Assembly (NCBI GenBank): GCA_938024995.1
Contig: CALJDU010000038.1
Coordinates: 43,509-107,508, forward strand
Direction: 5' to 3'
Length of the DNA: 64,000 nt
Source: an uncultured bacterium
Lineage (GTDB): Bacteria > Myxococcota_A > Polyangia > Polyangiales > Houyiibacteriaceae
The notes under the pieces are model-generated. The model saw only the letters and a program-made list of their open reading frames with translations. It ran no database searches and was not told the origin of the DNA. Below are positions 4,459 to 36,321 of the stretch, in pieces. Numbering within the stretch: position 1 is the stretch's first letter; each line of letters begins with the position of its first letter. The translations under genes and the position numbers were made by a program.

Positions 4459-6066
4459 TCAGGGTGAGTAGCCAAGCGCTTCACACGCTCGGTTTTGCCC
4501 GTTCTGAGGGAAGCGCCGCGCCAGCTCTCCGCAGGCCGAACGCGCGCGGCTCTCGTTGTTCGCGCCGCGCGCGCACTGCATCTCCCACATCAAGATCCGC
4601 GGCGTGCGACGAGCGCGCGGCATCCGGCGCGCTTCACGAAGACAACCCGCGTGATCTCCGTTGGAGAAGAGCTCACCGAGGGAAACGCTGGCCACGAACT
4701 CCTCTTGCTGCATGGCGGTCAACATCGGCGTGGCGGCGGACGGCGTGGCGGCGGGCGGCGTGGCGGCGGGCGTCATCGCGGAAGGCGGTGGGCTCCCGGA
4801 TGAGGTCATGCGGGACGACATGCCTCCTCGACGGGTTCGTCTCATGGGCGTGGGAGCGCCCGTCCTTGGCGAGTCGGGGGACGCTGCGGATGGCGGCTCA
4901 AGCACGAGGGCGGCGCTCTCAGCATCGTGGGTCTCAGCGTCGTCGGTCTCTGGCACTGGGTTCGCCTCGCGCATCGCGGTTTCGGACGGCACGGGATCCG
5001 CGCGTTCCAAGGCGCGCGTCTCGCCCGACTCGAGAACGGGTTCTGGCTTCTCGGCGATGTCTGGCCCCGCGCGTCCAAAGAAGATCAGCGCCGCGAGACC
5101 GAGCGCCGCGATCCCCATCAAGACGCCGAGGCCTGCCAAGAGCCATGCGCGGCCCGTCGAGTTCCGTTTCTGAGGGGCCCGTATGACGGAGTCGATCGCG
5201 GGCGCGGCTCGCGTCTCTGCCAACGCGATCTCAACAACATCGCTCGGGGCTTGGCTCGTGCGGGTGAGGCGCGCAGCGAACTCGCGCGCAGAGGGCGGTC
5301 GCGCGTCCGGATCCTTGGCGAGCGCGGAGAGAACCAACGCGTCGACATGCGGGCTCACTTCGGGTCGAACCGACGACGGCGCAGGCGCGGGATCGGTCAG
5401 CGCGCGCGCCATCATCGCCGTCGGCGTGGGCGCGGGAAACGGAACCGTGCCGGTGATCATTTCGAAGAAGAGCGCGCCCAAGGCGTACACGTCCGCGCGC
5501 TCGTCGAGGGGGAGCGCGCGCGCTTGTTCGGGCGCCATGTAGGCTGGCGTCCCGAGCGCCATTCCGGTCGCGGTGAGTCGAGTGAGGTCGGCGCGCAGCT
5601 TCGCGATCCCGAAATCGAGGAGCACCGGCCGAGTTCCCGCGCCCTCGCGACGCGCCATGAAGACGTTGCTCGGCTTGAGGTCGCGATGAAGAACGCCGCG
5701 CTCGTGCGCGTAGCTGACCGCGTCGCAGAGCTCAGCCATGATGCCGATCGCGACGTCAGGTTCCATGGGCCCGCGCGACAGCACCTCGTCGAGCGGTTCC
5801 CCCTCAAGGTGCTCCATGACGAGAAAGGGCGCGCCGCGTTCGTCCTCGTCGAAGTCGAGCACCGAGACAATGCCGACGTGGGCGAGCGAGGCGACCGTTT
5901 CGGCTTCTCGGCGAAAGCGCTCAACGAGATCCGGCGCGTCGCCGAGGAGCACCTTGATCGCACACACACGTCCGGTTCGCCGATGACGGCCGAGAAAAAC
6001 CTCGCCCATCCCACCGCGCCCGAGCATCTCGCCGGCCTCATATCGTTCGTGCGAAAACGCTGACAT
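4459..6066 (-). CDS. Membrane-anchored Ser/Thr protein kinase
   Basis: LGRGGMG, AIK, HRDLKPSN, DFG, GTPAYMAPE; one TM segment and a Pro/Ala-rich C-terminal region. Confidence 0.95.
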   Translation of the reverse strand: MSAFSHERYEAGEMLGRGGMGEVFLGRHRRTGRVCAIKVLLGDAPDLVERFRREAETVASLAHVGIVSVLDFDEDERGAPFLVMEHLEGEPLDEVLSRGPMEPDVAIGIMAELCDAVSYAHERGVLHRDLKPSNVFMARREGAGTRPVLLDFGIAKLRADLTRLTATGMALGTPAYMAPEQARALPLDERADVYALGALFFEMITGTVPFPAPTPTAMMARALTDPAPAPSSVRPEVSPHVDALVLSALAKDPDARPPSAREFAARLTRTSQAPSDVVEIALAETRAAPAIDSVIRAPQKRNSTGRAWLLAGLGVLMGIAALGLAALIFFGRAGPDIAEKPEPVLESGETRALERADPVPSETAMREANPVPETDDAETHDAESAALVLEPPSAASPDSPRTGAPTPMRRTRRGGMSSRMTSSGSPPPSAMTPAATPPAATPSAATPMLTAMQQEEFVASVSLGELFSNGDHAGCLREARRMPRARRTPRILMWEMQCARGANNESRARSACGELARRFPQNGQNRACEALGYSP

Positions 6067-6149
6067 CCCAACGAGAGTAAACGACGCCCGTTTGGGGGGT
6101 TGCCAATCGACGGTCGCGACCCACGATGAAAGAGTGTCGAAGGACGCTT

Positions 6150-6187
6150 AAAAGGGAGCTGGGCCGACGCAAACGCGCCGACCCAGC
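6150..6187 (-). terminator. Intrinsic terminator (minus strand)
   Basis: Minus strand GCTGGGTCGGCGC-GTTT-GCGTCGGCCCAGC-TCCCTTTT: 13-bp stem with two G-U pairs that only pair in this orientation, then a U-tract. Confidence 0.8.
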
Positions 6188-6508
6188 GACCGAATCGATG
6201 CTAGTCATGCGGGCTTGAGCTAGGGACTCGAGCCAGCGATCAAACCAAGGTCAACGAAACAACGAATCCTGGGCGGAACCGAGGAGTCGCAAGTTAAGGG
6301 GCTGCAAACACAGCCGAGTGAAGCAAGCGGAGAACAAGACGCGACTCTCAAGAGCCTGGCCCGAGGGCCATATGCGCCAATAAGTAAGCTCAAATCTGCA
6401 AGTTCAAGAACAAACCGGATGACCGATTTGTTGGGTTACTAAGCGAAGCAGAGTTTCAAGGCAAGGATGACGAGCACAAATGCCGGGCAGGGCAGTCAGC
6501 AACGTCAC
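6150..6508 (-). ncRNA. Putative ~360-nt sigma54-dependent structured ncRNA with repeated CUU motifs (no family recognised)
   Basis: Bounded by a sigma54 promoter and a terminator; no long ORF; multiple hairpins; low GC (56/120 in 6361-6480 by hand count); 15 CUU motifs. Confidence 0.65.
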
Positions 6509-6518
6509 CTAGAGGGTT

Positions 6519-6534
6519 TGCAACTCGGGTGCCA
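6519..6534 (-). promoter_or_regulatory. Sigma54 (RpoN) -24/-12 promoter
   Basis: Minus strand TGGCACCCGAGTTGCA = TGGCAC-N5-TTGCA with correct GG-N10-GC spacing; predicted +1 near 6508. Confidence 0.8.
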
Positions 6535-6562
6535 CTTTGTCAGCGAATCGTAAGCTCTTTCG

Positions 6563-6575
6563 TAAACCACTGAAA
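6563..6575 (-). promoter_or_regulatory. IHF-like binding site
   Basis: TTTCAGTGGTTTA vs consensus WATCARNNNNTTR (1 mismatch), about -55 to -67 from the predicted sigma54 start. Confidence 0.45.
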
Positions 6576-6788
6576 TGCTGTCGTTTTTCGCATTCGACGC
6601 GTGAGTCTGTGTTCTGGAGGTAGCTGACCAGGTCGACATGAGCGCCCCGTCGAGCCGGGATCCACGACATCCATGTCAGGGCACCGACCTCCGGATGACA
6701 GATCTCGTCGCATTGTCTCATCGGTCTTGCCGCCGCGGCTCTCGTTGGCGTCGCTTTCCACTCCGCTTTGAGGCAACGTTTGACGGCC

Positions 6789-7184
6789 ATGCCGCATCCA
6801 CCCCACCGATCGACGCTGTTTCTGGCGTTCGGAATCGCGATGTTGGCGGCATGCGGAACGCTTGGGGACGATCTCCGGCGCGCGCAGGCCAACTATGACG
6901 AGGCTCGCTATGAGAACGCCTCCGTCTGGCTGGACGTCATCACAGACCAAGAAGGACGCCTAAACGAAGCACAGCGCGCGCGGTTCTACTTTCTCCGAGG
7001 AATGACCGCCTATCGACTCGATCAGCGAGACGAAGCGTTCTACTTCCTGCGGCTCACACAGGCAGCTGCCGGCGAAAACGCGACAGGATTGACCGGTCCA
7101 CAGACGGAAGCGATGCGCCGCGCGTTGACCGACCTCACACCGACGACCGCGACACATCGCGCACGTCCGCCCGACGCGTTCTAG
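6789..7184 (+). CDS. Small TPR-like lipoprotein
   Basis: Signal peptide with lipobox LAAC; TPR-like RFYFLRGMTAYRLDQRDEA. Confidence 0.75.
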   Translation: MPHPPHRSTLFLAFGIAMLAACGTLGDDLRRAQANYDEARYENASVWLDVITDQEGRLNEAQRARFYFLRGMTAYRLDQRDEAFYFLRLTQAAAGENATGLTGPQTEAMRRALTDLTPTTATHRARPPDAF

Positions 7185-7226
7185 CGACGCCATCCACCTC
7201 GGTCGCGATCAGAACCCTTAAGTGAG

Positions 7227-7251
7227 AAAAGCGCCCTTTTGAGGCGCTCTT
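7227..7251 (-). terminator. Intrinsic terminator after the YdcH-like gene (possibly bidirectional)
   Basis: Minus strand AGCGCC-TCAAAAG-GGCGCT-TTT between convergent genes. Confidence 0.6.
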
Positions 7252-7265
7252 CGAGATTCAGCCGA

Positions 7266-7475
7266 TTAGGCCGGCGGAGGCTCACTGTCACGACGAGCTC
7301 GCTGTAGCTCGTCTTTCGTGTGGAGTTTCCGTTTCTTCAGCTCGGCCCGCTCGGTTTGTTCTTCAGACGTTAGGAACGTTCGAGAGTCGAGATTGGACAC
7401 TTGCTCTTTCAGAGCGGCGTGCTTCTTCTCAAGATGGTTGATCTGCTTCTCGATTTTGAGCGACGAGCGAGCCAT
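7266..7475 (-). CDS. YdcH/DUF465 family small coiled-coil protein
   Basis: LEKKHAALKEQV...LKKRKLHTKDEL pattern; GGAGG SD just upstream of ATG 7475. Confidence 0.8.
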   Translation of the reverse strand: MARSSLKIEKQINHLEKKHAALKEQVSNLDSRTFLTSEEQTERAELKKRKLHTKDELQRARRDSEPPPA

Positions 7476-7802
7476 GGCACCTCCCAAGCGGGATTTTGGA
7501 TGAGTTGTCAGTCTTGTCTAAGCCGGCGTTGAACGGGATCTAAGGTGGTCAGAGACCACGCGGAAATTTCCGCGCTTCGTTAATAATAGGGCAGATCGCC
7601 CTCTCTGATCAATCCCACGGCCCCAATTCACCTATTTTTTCAACAGGTTCGAGAGCGCGAGACACAGGCTAAGGTCTTATGAGACAATGCGCGCGCGCTA
7701 CGTTGGGAACCTTCCATCGTGGCGTTTTTGCGACATGAATAGACGACCCTCGCGGCGCGTTTCATATCTGTCGCCCGCTTGAGTGGGCCCTTCGGAGCAA
7801 TC

Positions 7803-8555
7803 ATGACCTCGCGCACTTTCCTGGCATCCCTAGCAGCGCTGCTCGTCGCAGTGAGCACCACGCTCGTCGCCTCAGCACAAAACGAGGGCGACAACGCGAC
7901 CTCCATGACCGGGCAACCTGCCGCGCCGCCGCCAACTCGCAACGCACGCGAGGTCGCCGCGCTCGTCCAGTCCTTTTACGACCAGACCACCTCGTTCCGC
8001 GCGAACTTCCATCAAACGCAGTTCACGAAGCTCTACAACCGTTACGAGCGCGCTCGTGGCGAGGTCGTGTTCAAGAAGCCCGGCAAGATGCGCTTCGACT
8101 ACGACCGTCCCAACGGACAGGTCTTCGTCAGCGATGGTGAGCGTCTCACGATCTATCAGCCGCCGGACGAGGGCGAGCAAAACGGTCAACTGATCGAGCG
8201 TGAGATCAGCGAAGACCAGCTCCCGCTCGCGTTCTCGTTTCTGACCGGGACCGGTCGGCTCGATCGTGACTTTCAGTTGCGGCTCCTCGACCCACAGCGC
8301 GAAGGATTCGAAGACGGTTACGTCCTTGAGCTGCGCCCGCGCGAAGCGACGCCGCAGTACGACCGCGTGGTCTTCTTTGTTCGCGTGGTCTCTCGTGGTG
8401 GCCGCAACGCTGGCGTCATCCAGCGCGTCCTCATCGTCGACTCGCAAGGGAACCGCAACCGCTTCGACTTCCGGAACATGCAGTTCAATCGCGACGTCGC
8501 GGACGACCGCTTCCGTTTCCGAGCGCCCGAAGGCTCGCGGCGCGTTAGGCCGTAA
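7803..8555 (+). CDS. lolA: Outer-membrane lipoprotein carrier LolA
   Basis: Signal peptide; FRANFHQ, GEVVFKKPGKMRFDY, FVSDG, DSQGNRNRFDF and F.F..PEG C-terminal motif. Confidence 0.85.
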   Translation: MTSRTFLASLAALLVAVSTTLVASAQNEGDNATSMTGQPAAPPPTRNAREVAALVQSFYDQTTSFRANFHQTQFTKLYNRYERARGEVVFKKPGKMRFDYDRPNGQVFVSDGERLTIYQPPDEGEQNGQLIEREISEDQLPLAFSFLTGTGRLDRDFQLRLLDPQREGFEDGYVLELRPREATPQYDRVVFFVRVVSRGGRNAGVIQRVLIVDSQGNRNRFDFRNMQFNRDVADDRFRFRAPEGSRRVRP

Positions 8556-12464: not shown

Positions 12465-13076
12465 CTAAATGTTCTTCCGGCCATCGAGCGCGCGACCCAG
12501 GGTGACCTGATCCGTGAACTCAAGCTCGCCCCCATGCGGCACGCCGCTCGCGATCCGCGTGACCTTGAGGCCGTCCACGTCGCGCAGGATCTCCGAGATG
12601 TAGAGCGCGGTCGCCTCCCCCTCTACGTTGAGCGGGGTGGCCACGATCACCTCTTCCATGCCGTCGAGACAGCGCGACTTGAGGAGATCAAAGGGGAGCG
12701 AGTCCGGGCCCACGCCATCGAGCGGCGCGATCAAGCCATGCAAGACGTGATAGCGACCGCGGTAACCCGAGCGCTCGAGCGCGACGAGATCCGGGACACG
12801 CGCGACCACGCAGAGCGAGCGTGGATCTCGCTTTAGGTCGAGGCACACCGCGCACTTTTCTTTCGCGCCGAAGTTGCCGCACACTGAGCACCGCTTCACG
12901 CGCTCATGGATCGTCTCGAGCGATTTCCCGAGCGCGACCGCGAAGTGAGGCTCCTTCGCGAGGACAAAGAACGCGAGCCGCGCAGCCGTACGCTCGCCGA
13001 TGCCAGGCAGCCGCGCGAAGAGCTCGATGAGCTCGGCGATCGGGTCCTTCTCGGCGCCGCGATCACCGAGCAGCAC
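12465..13076 (-). CDS. recR: Recombination mediator RecR
   Basis: LPGIGERTAARL, C4 zinc finger, YHVLHG, EGEATA, TRIASG; GTG 13076 follows a GGAGG SD. Confidence 0.97.
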   Translation of the reverse strand: MLLGDRGAEKDPIAELIELFARLPGIGERTAARLAFFVLAKEPHFAVALGKSLETIHERVKRCSVCGNFGAKEKCAVCLDLKRDPRSLCVVARVPDLVALERSGYRGRYHVLHGLIAPLDGVGPDSLPFDLLKSRCLDGMEEVIVATPLNVEGEATALYISEILRDVDGLKVTRIASGVPHGGELEFTDQVTLGRALDGRKNI

Positions 13077-13109
13077 GACGGCTCCTCCGAGCACAGGTCG
13101 GCATCGTGA

Positions 13110-13433
13110 TCAGGTCAGGCCTGGGATCTTCAAGCCGCCGGTCACGGACTCAAGCTCACCGTCGACGTGCTCACGCGCTTGCTTGAGCGCCGCGTTGGTC
13201 GCCGCGACGACCATGTCTTGCACCATCTCCAGGCCCTCGCTCTCGAGGAACTCCTTGTCGATCGTGACGGCGAGGAGCTCGGCTCCCCCGTTGACCTTGA
13301 CCATGACCTTGTCATTGCCGGCGCCCGCCTCGAACTCTTCAGTCTCGAGCTCCTTGCGGCGCTTCTCGATCTTGCGCTGCATCCGGCTCGCTTGCCGCAT
13401 GAGCTCAGCCATTCCTCCGCGAAACTTTGCCAT
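13110..13433 (-). CDS. ybaB: YbaB/EbfC nucleoid-associated protein
   Basis: LMRQA..MQ, QDMVVAATNAAL, TGGLKIPG; conserved dnaX-ybaB-recR order. Confidence 0.93.
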   Translation of the reverse strand: MAKFRGGMAELMRQASRMQRKIEKRRKELETEEFEAGAGNDKVMVKVNGGAELLAVTIDKEFLESEGLEMVQDMVVAATNAALKQAREHVDGELESVTGGLKIPGLT

Positions 13434-13437
13434 TCTC

Positions 13438-15375
13438 TCAGTCTCCTTCGATCCGAACGTCCACGTTTCCGCGGGCTTCGGGGAACACGTCCATCGCCTC
13501 TAACACGCGCGGGTGCTCAAGGGCGGCTTTCTTCTTTTCACGATCACGATGCTCGCGGCGAGTCGCCTCCACAGACGCGACCGTGCGCTTCTCGTCCCCA
13601 TCGACATCATCGCGAACCTCGTAGGGCGGCCGCGCGTTAAAGATCGTCTCGGCGGCGTCGAGGATCGCGCGCTCCGCTTCTGGCGCGCGAGCTTGGCGCG
13701 CGTAGAACGAGCCCCGCTTGAACGAGAGGATGATCTTCTCCACCGAGACGACCCGCGGGACGCCATGCTCCAACACCGCGGCCAAGGCCGGTCGACCTGC
13801 GCGCAGATGCTCGATGATTCGCTCCCATTCCTGCATCGCGTTGCGGCGCAAGTGTGTGCCGGCGGACGCAGACGCTGCGGGGGCCGAAGCTGGAGCTGGA
13901 GCTGGAGCTGAAGCTGGCGCTGGAGCAGAAGCTGGAGCTGAAGCTGAAGCTGAAGCTGACGCTGGCACAGGAGCGGGCGCCGCCGAAGCAGGCGCGGCCG
14001 TGTTTGCGGAAGTCGCCGACGATCGGGACGGCGAGGACACATCACGTGACGAAGACTGGGGGGACGGCGCGGACGCCGCAGGAGGCTCGGGCGAGCGAGC
14101 TTGTTGCTCCTTGGGCGGCGACCGGAACGAACGCGCATCAGCGACGGCAGCCGCCGCAGAGGGAACAGGATCGACCGGCAAGGTCGCGCGTCGCGCGGGA
14201 GCACGTGGGGTCTCGCGTCGCGATCCGCCTTGACCGCGCAGGGACTTCTCGAGCCGACCGACCCGCGCCAGGAGCTCGGCGAGATCACGCAGCGGGGGAC
14301 GCGTCGCGATCCGCGCGAGACCCATCTCGAGGACCATCTTCGGGGCGCTCGCGCGGCCAACCTCGTCGGCCAGTTTGCCGAGCATCGCGAACGCCCGCTG
14401 CAGCTCCAGTGGGTCGTGGTCGTCCGCGAGCTTCTTCGCGGTCACGCGCTCTTCCTCCGCGAGCTCCACCAGCGCGCCGTCGGTCAACCGCAGGACGACG
14501 AGGTCGCGGGTGACCTGCAAGAGCTGCCGGTTGAGGTGCAAGGGGTCGACCCCCTGTCCACAGAGCTGATCGACCGCCGCGATACACGCCGCCGGGTCGC
14601 CGCTGAGCAAGGCGTGCGCGGTGCTCACGACGCCGTTGCGCGCCGCGATCCCGAGCGTCTTGGCGACCTCCTCGCCGACCAAGTGCGTCCCGCCGAAGGC
14701 GACGAGTTGATCGAGGAGCGTGAGCGCGTCGCGCATCGACCCGGCCGACTCACGCGCCACGATCGAGACCGCTTGCTCATCGGCGGTGACCTCCTCGGCC
14801 GCGAGGATCTCTTTGACGCGCTTCGAAACGACCGCCTGCGGAATCAAGCGGAAGTCGTAGCGCTGGCAACGCGACCGAATCGTGATGGGGACCTTGTGGA
14901 TCTCCGTCGTCGCGAAGATGAACTTCACGTGAGGCGGGGGCTCCTCGAGGGTCTTGAGGAAGGCGTTGAACGCGCCCGTCGAGAGCATGTGAACCTCATC
15001 GACGATCACGACCTTGAAGCGATCCCGCGAAGGCCGAAACGGCAACGTCTCCTGGAGCCGGCGAACGTCGTCAACGCTGTTGTTCGACGCGCCGTCCATC
15101 TCGAGGACGTCCATGTCGACGCCGGCGGTAATGTCGCGACACGGATCACACTCATTGCAGGGCGCGCGTGTCGGTCCGTTCTGACAGTTCAGCGCCTTGG
15201 CGAGGAGCCGCGCGGTCGTCGTTTTTCCAACACCGCGAACGCCTGTGAAGAGAAAGGCGTGCGCTACCCGCTTCGAATCGATGGCGTTGCCGAGCGTCCG
15301 CGCGACGTGCTCCTGCCCGACCAGCTCATCAAACGTCTGGGGACGGTATTTACGCGCGAAGACGGTGTACGCCAT
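13438..15375 (-). CDS. dnaX: DNA polymerase III subunit gamma/tau
   Basis: ARKYRPQTF, GVRGVGKTT, DEVHML, LKTLEEPP, SRCQ, GSMRDAL. Confidence 0.98.
   Translation of the reverse strand: MAYTVFARKYRPQTFDELVGQEHVARTLGNAIDSKRVAHAFLFTGVRGVGKTTTARLLAKALNCQNGPTRAPCNECDPCRDITAGVDMDVLEMDGASNNSVDDVRRLQETLPFRPSRDRFKVVIVDEVHMLSTGAFNAFLKTLEEPPPHVKFIFATTEIHKVPITIRSRCQRYDFRLIPQAVVSKRVKEILAAEEVTADEQAVSIVARESAGSMRDALTLLDQLVAFGGTHLVGEEVAKTLGIAARNGVVSTAHALLSGDPAACIAAVDQLCGQGVDPLHLNRQLLQVTRDLVVLRLTDGALVELAEEERVTAKKLADDHDPLELQRAFAMLGKLADEVGRASAPKMVLEMGLARIATRPPLRDLAELLARVGRLEKSLRGQGGSRRETPRAPARRATLPVDPVPSAAAAVADARSFRSPPKEQQARSPEPPAASAPSPQSSSRDVSSPSRSSATSANTAAPASAAPAPVPASASASASAPASAPAPASAPAPAPASAPAASASAGTHLRRNAMQEWERIIEHLRAGRPALAAVLEHGVPRVVSVEKIILSFKRGSFYARQARAPEAERAILDAAETIFNARPPYEVRDDVDGDEKRTVASVEATRREHRDREKKKAALEHPRVLEAMDVFPEARGNVDVRIEGD
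13889..13965. repeat. Imperfect 6-bp tandem repeat (GCTGGA/GCTGAA) encoding the Ala/Pro/Ser linker of DnaX
   Basis: gctggagctggagctggagctgaagctggcgctggagcagaagctggagctgaagctgaagctgaagctgac visible directly. Confidence 0.75.
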
Positions 15376-35448: not shown

Positions 35449-35464
35449 TGGCACGGAACTCGCT
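35449..35464 (+). promoter_or_regulatory. Possible sigma54 promoter
   Basis: TGGCACGGAACTCGCT: GG-N10-GC spacing, one mismatch (TCGC vs TTGC), just upstream of ATG 35479. Confidence 0.4.
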
Positions 35465-35478
35465 ACTCCAACCACTCG

Positions 35479-36321
35479 ATGCACGGGCGTCCAAACCTCT
35501 CTCTCCTCTCCTTGCTCGCCGTCATGTTGATGTCTGCGTGTGCGCCAGCCGGTCTCCTGCAGCCCGCGCGTCAGGTCCCCGAAGGTCGTCTCCAGGTCAC
35601 CACGCAAGCGAGCGTCACCCTCCCTTCCGGACTCGCGCGCGAGACGGTCGACGAGGCGCGCGCGGCAGACGAAAACATCAGCGGCACGTTGAACCGAAGC
35701 GAGCTGACGGAGCTCACCAACGCGATGAGCGGCTTGCTCTTGCACCCACCTGGCGGTGACGCGCAGCTCTCCCTCGCGTACGGCGCGAGCAAGCGAGTCG
35801 AGATCGGCGCGCGGGTCGGCGGCATGGGCGGCGGCGCGTGGGCGCGCTTTCAGTTTCTCCGGATGCGTCCCGGCATTTACGGCTCGTTCGGCATCAGCAC
35901 CCACTTCGCGTTCGCGGCCACCCCTATCGACCGCTTCACAGAAGACATCGAGGTCGGTCACGCGCGTCGTCAAGAACTCTCGTTCCCGCTCACGCTTGGC
36001 TACAGCCGACGCCACGTCCACCTGTGGGTAGGCGCGAGGGTGTCGCTCGCGCGTCACGACGCCGCGGCGACCGCTTGCGTCAGCGGTGACTGTGCGGAGC
36101 GAGCTGACATCGACCTAGACGCGCGGACGGCCTACTTCGGCGGCGAGCTGGGCGCGGCCTTTGGAACGGGCCGCTTCTGGTTCTCCTTCGGCCTGAGCGT
36201 CGGACAGATGCGGTCGCGTGCTCAGATCGATGCGGAGATGCTCGGCCGTCGCATGGAAGAGGAGATCAACCGACGCGGGCTGCTGCTTACGCCGTCGCTG
36301 GGTCTCATCTTCTGGATGTAG
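35479..36321 (+). CDS. Lipoprotein with outer-membrane beta-barrel-like domain
   Basis: Lipobox MSAC; alternating Gly/aromatic beta strands; aromatic-rich C-terminus. Confidence 0.65.
   Translation: MHGRPNLSLLSLLAVMLMSACAPAGLLQPARQVPEGRLQVTTQASVTLPSGLARETVDEARAADENISGTLNRSELTELTNAMSGLLLHPPGGDAQLSLAYGASKRVEIGARVGGMGGGAWARFQFLRMRPGIYGSFGISTHFAFAATPIDRFTEDIEVGHARRQELSFPLTLGYSRRHVHLWVGARVSLARHDAAATACVSGDCAERADIDLDARTAYFGGELGAAFGTGRFWFSFGLSVGQMRSRAQIDAEMLGRRMEEEINRRGLLLTPSLGLIFWM

Follow-up and report, generated by a model that had tools for sequence, protein, structure and literature searches.

A CUU-rich intergenic stretch of an uncultured Polyangiales bacterium as the possible core of a sigma-54-dependent non-coding RNA gene

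Between a Ser/Thr protein kinase gene and a small lipoprotein gene of an uncultured marine bacterium (Polyangiales, Houyiibacteriaceae; assembly GCA_938024995.1, contig CALJDU010000038.1) lies a stretch of DNA that raises a simple question: why should 220 nt be so rich in the trinucleotide CUU when read on the minus strand, and what could such a stretch do? Positions given here are those of the window, the 64,000-nt piece of the contig (positions 43,509 to 107,508 of its forward strand) that was analyzed. The CUU-rich stretch occupies 6247-6466, and its flanks, the kinase gene on the minus strand and the lipoprotein gene on the plus strand, place it within a 722-nt divergent intergenic region. 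An earlier note on this DNA had taken the stretch for a putative non-coding RNA (ncRNA) and its CUU motifs for multivalent binding sites of an RNA-binding protein. The main addition made here is that the stretch appears to be part of a delimited unit, with a sigma-54 promoter at one end and an intrinsic terminator at the other. Our preferred reading, to which we assign a probability of roughly 0.35, is that it forms the core of an orphan sigma-54-dependent ncRNA gene of ~359 nt on the minus strand, in which the words CUUG and CUUA (together CUUR) would be multivalent contact sites and the RNA would act as a decoy.

The first part of the answer lies directly upstream of the stretch. There, the minus strand reads TGGCACCCGAGTTGCA at 6534-6519, which agrees exactly, and in the correct orientation, with TGGCAC-N5-TTGCW, the sigma-54 consensus; both this consensus and its position at -24/-12 are taken from PMC12316311. 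This exact match is unique in the window (0.02 expected) and such a match was present in 2 of 100 shuffles; sites with one mismatch number 2 in the window, against 0.93 expected. Because the -12 C is at 6520, transcription would start near 6508, ~12 nt past the -12 GC. At the other end of the unit, the stem of the predicted terminator ( Table 1 ) is lengthened by 2 bp in the fold, with UUUU then following. The sequence as a whole is predicted to fold well: for 6146-6508 (363 nt) the minimum free energy (MFE) is -131 kcal/mol, compared with -112.3 +/- 4.9 for shuffled sequences (z = -3.84, 0 of 100 shuffles as good), and the 220-nt stretch alone gives a z of -2.37. The exact promoter, the terminator and the fold strengthen the premise of the earlier note that the stretch is part of an ncRNA, and it is from these signals that we infer the production of the RNA, its 5' and 3' ends and its dependence on sigma-54. 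Rfam 15 gave 0 matches over the full 64 kb when searched at the gathering score, and a search of 5900-7900 with the threshold relaxed to E≤10 likewise gave 0.

The same DNA shows little sign of coding for protein. In 6100-6550, GC content is flat over the codon phases, which sets the region apart from the flanking genes, and CUU occurs in all three phases. Three open reading frames (ORFs) do exist on the minus strand, at 6220-6393 (57 amino acids, TTG start), 6505-6639 (44 amino acids) and 6038-6208 (56 amino acids), so that a small protein might be the product of the locus. However, a Shine-Dalgarno sequence precedes none of the three, the two that were scanned against Pfam (6220-6393 and 6038-6208) have no match, and the 56-amino-acid frame runs through the terminator hairpin. 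The ORF, Pfam and codon-phase checks led us to reject this explanation, which we regard as extremely improbable. Among the features looked for in the gene of a sigma-54-dependent small RNA (sRNA), those found here are an oriented -24/-12 promoter match, a terminator of its own and no credible coding capacity.

The predicted fold gives the unit a regular layout. From the 5' end it runs through H1, H2, a forked H3-H4, H5, H6 and H7 to the terminator, with U/C-rich linkers between the hairpins ( Table 1 ). The CUU motifs are distributed very unevenly over this layout: 12 lie in linkers L1-L4, which together measure 95 nt, a 13th lies across the border between L4 and H6, and the 231 nt of hairpins hold the remaining 2.

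Table 1. Features of the predicted unit, in the order of the minus-strand transcript, followed by the neighboring genes (window positions).
Feature	Position	Strand	Details
Candidate enhancer (activator-binding) region	6632..6701		-126 to -192; half-sites TGTCAT, TGACAT, ATGTCG, ATGTCG
Putative sigma-54 (-24/-12) promoter	6519..6534	(-)	TGGCAC-N5-TTGCA; GG 6533-6532, GC 6521-6520
Predicted non-coding transcription unit	6150..6508	(-)	~359 nt, promoter to terminator
Predicted 5' terminal hairpin H1	6467..6508	(-)	in MFE and centroid folds; begins at the inferred start; 0 CUU
Predicted linker L1	6433..6466	(-)	34 nt, 4 CUU (CCUUGCCUUG ... GCUUCGCUUA)
Predicted hairpin H2	6409..6432	(-)	10-bp stem, loop UCAU, pairing probability ~1, 0 CUU
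Predicted linker L2	6379..6408	(-)	30 nt, 4 CUU (CUUGAACUUG ... GCUUACUUA)
Predicted forked double hairpin H3-H4	6339..6378	(-)	one CUU across stem end and UUGA loop
Predicted linker L3	6316..6338	(-)	23 nt, 3 CUU (CUUG ... GCUUGCUUC)
Predicted hairpin H5	6300..6315	(-)	GGCUGU-GUUU-GCAGCC
Predicted linker L4 and H6 border	6287..6299	(-)	2 CUU (CCUUAACUUGC); second straddles L4/H6
Predicted hairpins H6 and H7 with short spacer	6204..6291	(-)	1 CUU, at 6249
Predicted intrinsic terminator	6150..6191	(-)	core 6187-6158, 13-bp stem (10 G-C), loop GUUU, tail TCCCTTTTAA
Ser/Thr protein kinase gene	4459..6066	(-)	Pfam Pkinase, E 4e-44; downstream of the RNA unit
Small lipoprotein gene	6789..7184	(+)	divergent; signal peptide with lipobox L-A-A-C in the translation
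DUF465 gene	7266-7478	(-)	70 amino acids, Pfam E 2e-07, GGGAGG ribosome-binding site
LolA gene	7779-8555	(+)	

To judge how unusual the motif is, we compared its counts with those in shuffled sequences. The minus strand of the 220-nt stretch does contain 15 CUU, at the positions that the earlier note had listed, and the plus-strand words quoted there are present as well (GCAAGTTCAAG at 6398-6408 and GCAAGTTAAG at 6289-6298). The enrichment is real, but it had been overstated: the expectation of 3-4 was too low because equal base frequencies had been assumed for a stretch that is rich in T (74 T, 64 C, 50 G, 32 A), and the number expected is 7.2 from composition and 9.9 from dinucleotide shuffles. 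At least 15 CUU were reached in 5 of 5000 mononucleotide shuffles and in 59 of 5000 dinucleotide shuffles (27 of 3000 in a second set, mean 9.9); UUG is enriched more than CUU (14, compared with 7.4 expected). A sharper signal appears when the following base is included: in dinucleotide shuffles of the 220 nt, CUUR is found 12 times against 3.24 expected and CUUG 8 times against 2.45 (0 of 3000 shuffles reach either count), while CUUU does not occur at all, with 3.99 expected, though U is the commonest base (16 of 3000 shuffles as low). The motif is thus better written CUUR than CUU.

The spacing and the location of the motifs are also unusual. The six tandem CUU pairs claimed earlier are present, with a spacing of 4-6 nt, compared with 1.27 pairs expected (2 of 3000 shuffles); if the 15 sites are taken as given and placed at random, the probability of such close pairs is 0.033. 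In a scan of 12,758 windows of 220 nt over both strands (10-nt grid, mean 2.9), this is the densest CTT window of the entire 64 kb, with a maximum of 14, followed by 12, 11, 11 and 11. Since linkers differ from hairpins in composition, we also shuffled the linkers alone, and the enrichment persists: 12 CUU against 7.55 expected (21 of 5000), 10 CUUR against 2.68 (1 of 5000) and 0 CUUU against 3.23 (17 of 5000 as low). Tandem Repeats Finder returned 0 rows for 6100-6600, and so no tandem array was found beneath the pattern. AAG-rich coding on the plus strand was considered as a source of the CUU words and rejected, there being no plus-strand ORF of at least 40 amino acids in 6064-6637 and CUU lying in all three phases. 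CUU richness elsewhere in the window mirrors AAG-rich coding of the other strand, which is not so at 6247-6466. The DUF465 gene is an instance: with a coding sequence full of AAG and GAA, it leaves the other strand rich in T and CTT, mimicking the composition of the CUU-rich stretch.

We used the partition function computed for the 220-nt stretch to ask whether the motifs are exposed, as the earlier note had proposed. In 14 of the 15, the predicted mean probability of being unpaired exceeds 0.5; the average over all CUU is 0.77, compared with 0.37 for the other bases, and a difference as large was reached in 5 of 300 dinucleotide shuffles. The motifs are therefore mostly single-stranded in the prediction, though only modestly beyond what composition gives. 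A second structural proposal, that two domains of the RNA are copies of one module, did not survive: aligned locally, the two halves reach a score of 15, where shuffles average 17.1 (889 of 1000 do as well), and the two named modules align at 10, against 10.0 (502 of 1000 as good). What recurs is limited to short words, AACUUGC for instance, and is no more than chance would give in 220 nt.

Taken together, the layout suggests the following mechanism. RNA polymerase with sigma-54, enabled by an enhancer-binding activator, would begin ~12 nt past the -12 GC. The transcript would open with a hairpin at its 5' end and continue with five stable, G+C-rich hairpin units, set apart by single-stranded linkers rich in U and C, and transcription would halt at the intrinsic terminator, a strong one that lies 84 nt short of the kinase ATG. 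The four linkers would present 12-13 CUUR, mostly in pairs 4-6 nt apart, as multivalent single-stranded contacts. When the activator is on, such a sponge RNA would titrate a single-strand-specific RNA-binding protein, as CrcZ does with Hfq/Crc and CsrB/RsmZ with CsrA. One feature looked for in a sponge RNA is present here, namely a motif that is over-represented relative to composition and placed in predicted single-stranded segments (with the caveat that CUU in shuffled sequences also averages 0.65 unpaired). The protein-binding interpretation of the CUU sites is partly supported, in that it agrees with the alternation of hairpins and linkers and has a precedent in CrcZ and CsrB, and we infer that a decoy for an RNA-binding protein is the most likely mechanism.

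Exposed motifs could also act in another way. If the transcript were a base-pairing sRNA, the CUUR linkers would be short seeds for YAAG sites, either UAAGG/AAGG of ribosome-binding sites or AAG-rich coding sequence. The predicted single-strandedness of the motifs would suit such a role, and 4 of the 15 read CCUU, the complement of AAGG. There is, moreover, a perfect 12-nt complementarity between 6417-6406 of the RNA (CGGUUUGUUCUU) and the coding part of the DUF465 messenger RNA (mRNA) at 7363-7352, both being minus-strand transcripts; however, 8 of the 12 complementary bases belong to the 3' arm of H2, a very stable hairpin, and the site is possibly inaccessible for that reason. Known sRNA seeds are longer and few, and at least 12 copies of a 4-nt word would be unusual for seeds. 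We consider this explanation quite unlikely, and return to the decoy.

Several results weigh against the decoy reading, and they are given in this and the following paragraphs. CUU alone is modestly enriched and would fail correction for 64 trinucleotides, and the refinement to CUUR was picked after the data had been seen. The exposure of the motifs is partly compositional, because CUU is mostly unpaired in shuffled sequences too (mean 0.65, with 22 of 300 shuffles reaching 0.77). Among the 50 ORF translations of the window that were scanned, none is an enhancer-binding protein with a Sigma54_activat match above the cut-off. To our knowledge no bacterial protein recognises CUUR, and a limited literature search found no description of one (a paper on Caulobacter AbnZ that it brought up was judged irrelevant), which does not prove that none is in print. 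Relatives of the locus are also lacking: the kinase protein finds 4 loci in genome contigs (24-41% identity) and 2 in metagenome contigs (29-36% identity), none of them orthologous.

Other searches for relatives gave a similar picture. GlmS matches over its full length at 44-50% in 3 of 4 genomes, with a weak 26% in the fourth, and its best match in 121 genomes sampled from one phylum, apparently Acidobacteriota, is 56%, so that no close relative was found among these (two unpublished genomes in the sample, at 53% and 48%, bear no weight in what is stated here); a distant blastn search of the plasmid collection gave no match to the locus. Four DNA sequencing runs from 2 studies contain the whole or part of the stretch. 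In one of them (X1), bins 6092-7219 have the depth of a single spanning contig only, and no extra copy at least 80% alike was seen, a contig-based result that is not proof. In another (X4), from the second study, a near-strain is represented by contigs of depth 2-3 and ~96-98% identity that cover 8 of the 15 CUU, which limits the weight of the comparison. The near-strain has 2 substitutions and 3 gaps in the 127 nt of 6356-6482, 10 differences in the 182 nt of 6083-6264 and 44 differences in the 491 nt of three kinase coding pieces; for the 5' half of the RNA against kinase coding sequence, Fisher's test gives p = 0.002 with substitutions only and 0.066 with gaps included. Both of the listed differences in the terminator hairpin (6171 and 6174) fall within its 4-nt loop. 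The positions of the differences within 6356-6482 were not listed, and the comparison is silent on the motif itself: we read it as weak evidence of constraint on the 5' half of the RNA, not on CUUR.

These points bear on the simplest alternative, that the stretch has no dedicated function at all. It would then be a pyrimidine-rich spacer whose CUUR words reflect the local history of mutation or composition, and the sigma-54 match would be a chance one or would belong to the kinase. That the pattern was chosen after inspection, that the enrichment of CUU alone is modest and that conservation evidence is limited to one near-strain, relatives not having been found, all speak for this explanation. 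It leaves as coincidence, however, that three independent signals, namely an exact sigma-54 site (0.02 expected), a terminator and a fold with z of -3.84, occur in the right order and orientation; nor does it account for a CUUR enrichment that survives linker-only shuffles, with a tandem-repeat origin excluded (0 rows), or for a 5' half of the RNA that differs less from the near-strain than adjacent coding sequence does. We judge the absence of any function to be unlikely.

A further alternative concerns the downstream gene. The unit points toward the kinase, whose ATG lies 84 nt past the terminator tail without a Shine-Dalgarno sequence, and the minus-strand interval from the terminator to this ATG showed no sigma-70-like promoter (the scan used an E. 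coli-type consensus and may miss promoters of the host). Since no such promoter was seen past the terminator, the kinase possibly depends on read-through. The unit would then be a ~440-nt sigma-54-dependent 5' leader of the kinase mRNA, its apparent terminator would be an attenuator, and the CUUR words would either bind a termination or antitermination protein or be idle. A candidate for the alternative pairing that attenuation would use is the 16-nt segment 6244-6229, which is 81% identical to the region of the terminator 5' arm (6194-6179) and could in principle compete for the 3' arm. Short two-copy repeats often arise by chance, however, and no alternative pairing that we saw comes near the strength of the terminator hairpin (13 bp, 10 G-C); H7 followed by the terminator also resembles the ordinary 3' end of an sRNA. 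A leader is thus a possible explanation, albeit one that we would not expect to hold. Directly upstream of the kinase ATG (6066-6150, minus strand) there is also a candidate pair of elements, TTGGCA ... TTTACT, spaced by 19 nt, which would make the kinase mRNA nearly leaderless.

On the other side of the promoter, the half-sites at 6632-6701 are named only as candidate activator sites, from their sequence. By eye the region includes the palindrome GACAT-GG-ATGTC; a repeat search there reported only the palindrome GTCGAC. Farther upstream, a perfect 13-nt inverted repeat, ATGAGACAATGCG, is found at 6709-6721 and again at 7679-7691, with a diverged direct copy at 7540-7562. The two perfect copies are oriented alike with respect to their genes, at -201 to -213 from the RNA start on the minus strand and 88-100 nt before the LolA start on the plus strand, and may be a regulator site common to the RNA unit and LolA, or a chance occurrence. 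Another sigma-54-like site (TGGCACGGAACTCGCT, one mismatch) lies at 35449-35464 on the plus strand and ends 15 nt before the ATG at 35479, which opens a lipoprotein-like signal peptide (MHGRPNLSLLSLLAVMLMSAC); if the site is real, the transcript from it would be almost leaderless. The small lipoprotein at 6789-7184 has no Pfam match; the Protein Atlas clusters nearest to it are annotated as "lipoprotein family protein" and are mostly from Myxococcota (score 0.98), a second query being uninformative (≤0.84). The 64-kb window contains zero Rfam families, transfer RNA included, and no signal recognition particle RNA match adjoins the dnaX-ybaB-recR cluster at 12465-15375.

A bolder version of the decoy reading, which we hold to be doubtful, is that the linker pairs of CUUR (CUUG/CUUA, never CUUU) are the recognition code of a new bacterial RNA-binding protein, with the RNA as its sigma-54-controlled sponge. 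If true, this would be a third titration system beside CsrA with GGA and Hfq/Crc with A-rich motifs, found in an uncultured marine bacterium with a kinase gene immediately downstream, and it would tie the code to signalling through sigma-54 and enhancer-binding proteins in a lineage whose post-transcriptional regulation has hardly been explored. Were the RNA made and its CUUR bound, a pyrimidine-based code would be added to the few known bacterial sponge-RNA systems; otherwise, the locus is a clean case of an orphan candidate for a sigma-54-driven structured RNA. The prediction is concrete: it names a promoter, a start, an end and 12-13 copies of a motif.

How does this unit compare with RNAs that are already known? 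CrcZ, CrcY and CrcX of Pseudomonadaceae share with the predicted unit an RpoN (sigma-54) promoter and the form of an ncRNA of several hundred nucleotides, here with an intrinsic terminator too. They differ in that the unit carries CUUR rather than A-rich motifs (0 AANAANAA in 359 nt), has no Rfam match and has no adjacent cbrB-like activator gene among the 50 ORFs scanned. CsrB, RsmY and RsmZ are built like beads on a string, with many 3-4-nt words exposed in loops and linkers between hairpins and a terminator at the end. The unit has the same layout of a repeated short word between hairpins followed by a terminator; in contrast, it contains 1 GGA and 0 ANGGA in 359 nt, it has no Rfam match, and its motifs lie in linkers, not in hairpin loops.

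Two other classes are worth comparing. TRAP (GAG/UAG repeats) and HutP (UAG repeats) are attenuators in which a protein binds triplet repeats in RNA, and there, as here, short words a few nucleotides apart are followed by a terminator and then by a gene. Here, however, the words form scattered pairs over ~220 nt between hairpins, not one regular array, and the 50 window ORFs scanned included none that resembles TRAP or HutP. GlmY and Qrr1-4 are sigma-54-dependent sRNAs with a -24/-12 promoter, an upstream activator site and a terminator at the end. They are shorter than the unit described here and have known partners and targets, and by Rfam there is no sequence or structure match to them.

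The closest setting in terms of lineage is that of Pxr. According to PMC5568312, the Myxococcus sRNA Pxr folds into several stem-loops and is apparently transcribed from a predicted sigma-54 promoter; it measures 108 nt, has three stem-loops and is flanked by nla19 and an NADH dehydrogenase gene. PMC12316311 counts Myxococcota among the lineages with the most enhancer-binding proteins. A predicted sigma-54 promoter and a multi-stem-loop fold are, as far as that account of Pxr goes, shared with our unit, which differs in its length of ~359 nt, in its place between lipoprotein and kinase genes and in having no Rfam match. Because no model matches, because the counts of AANAANAA (0), GGA (1) and ANGGA (0) are so low and because the size and neighbors of Pxr are different, the unit does not appear to be a member of the CrcZ, CsrB/Rsm or Pxr families, but it may still work as they do.

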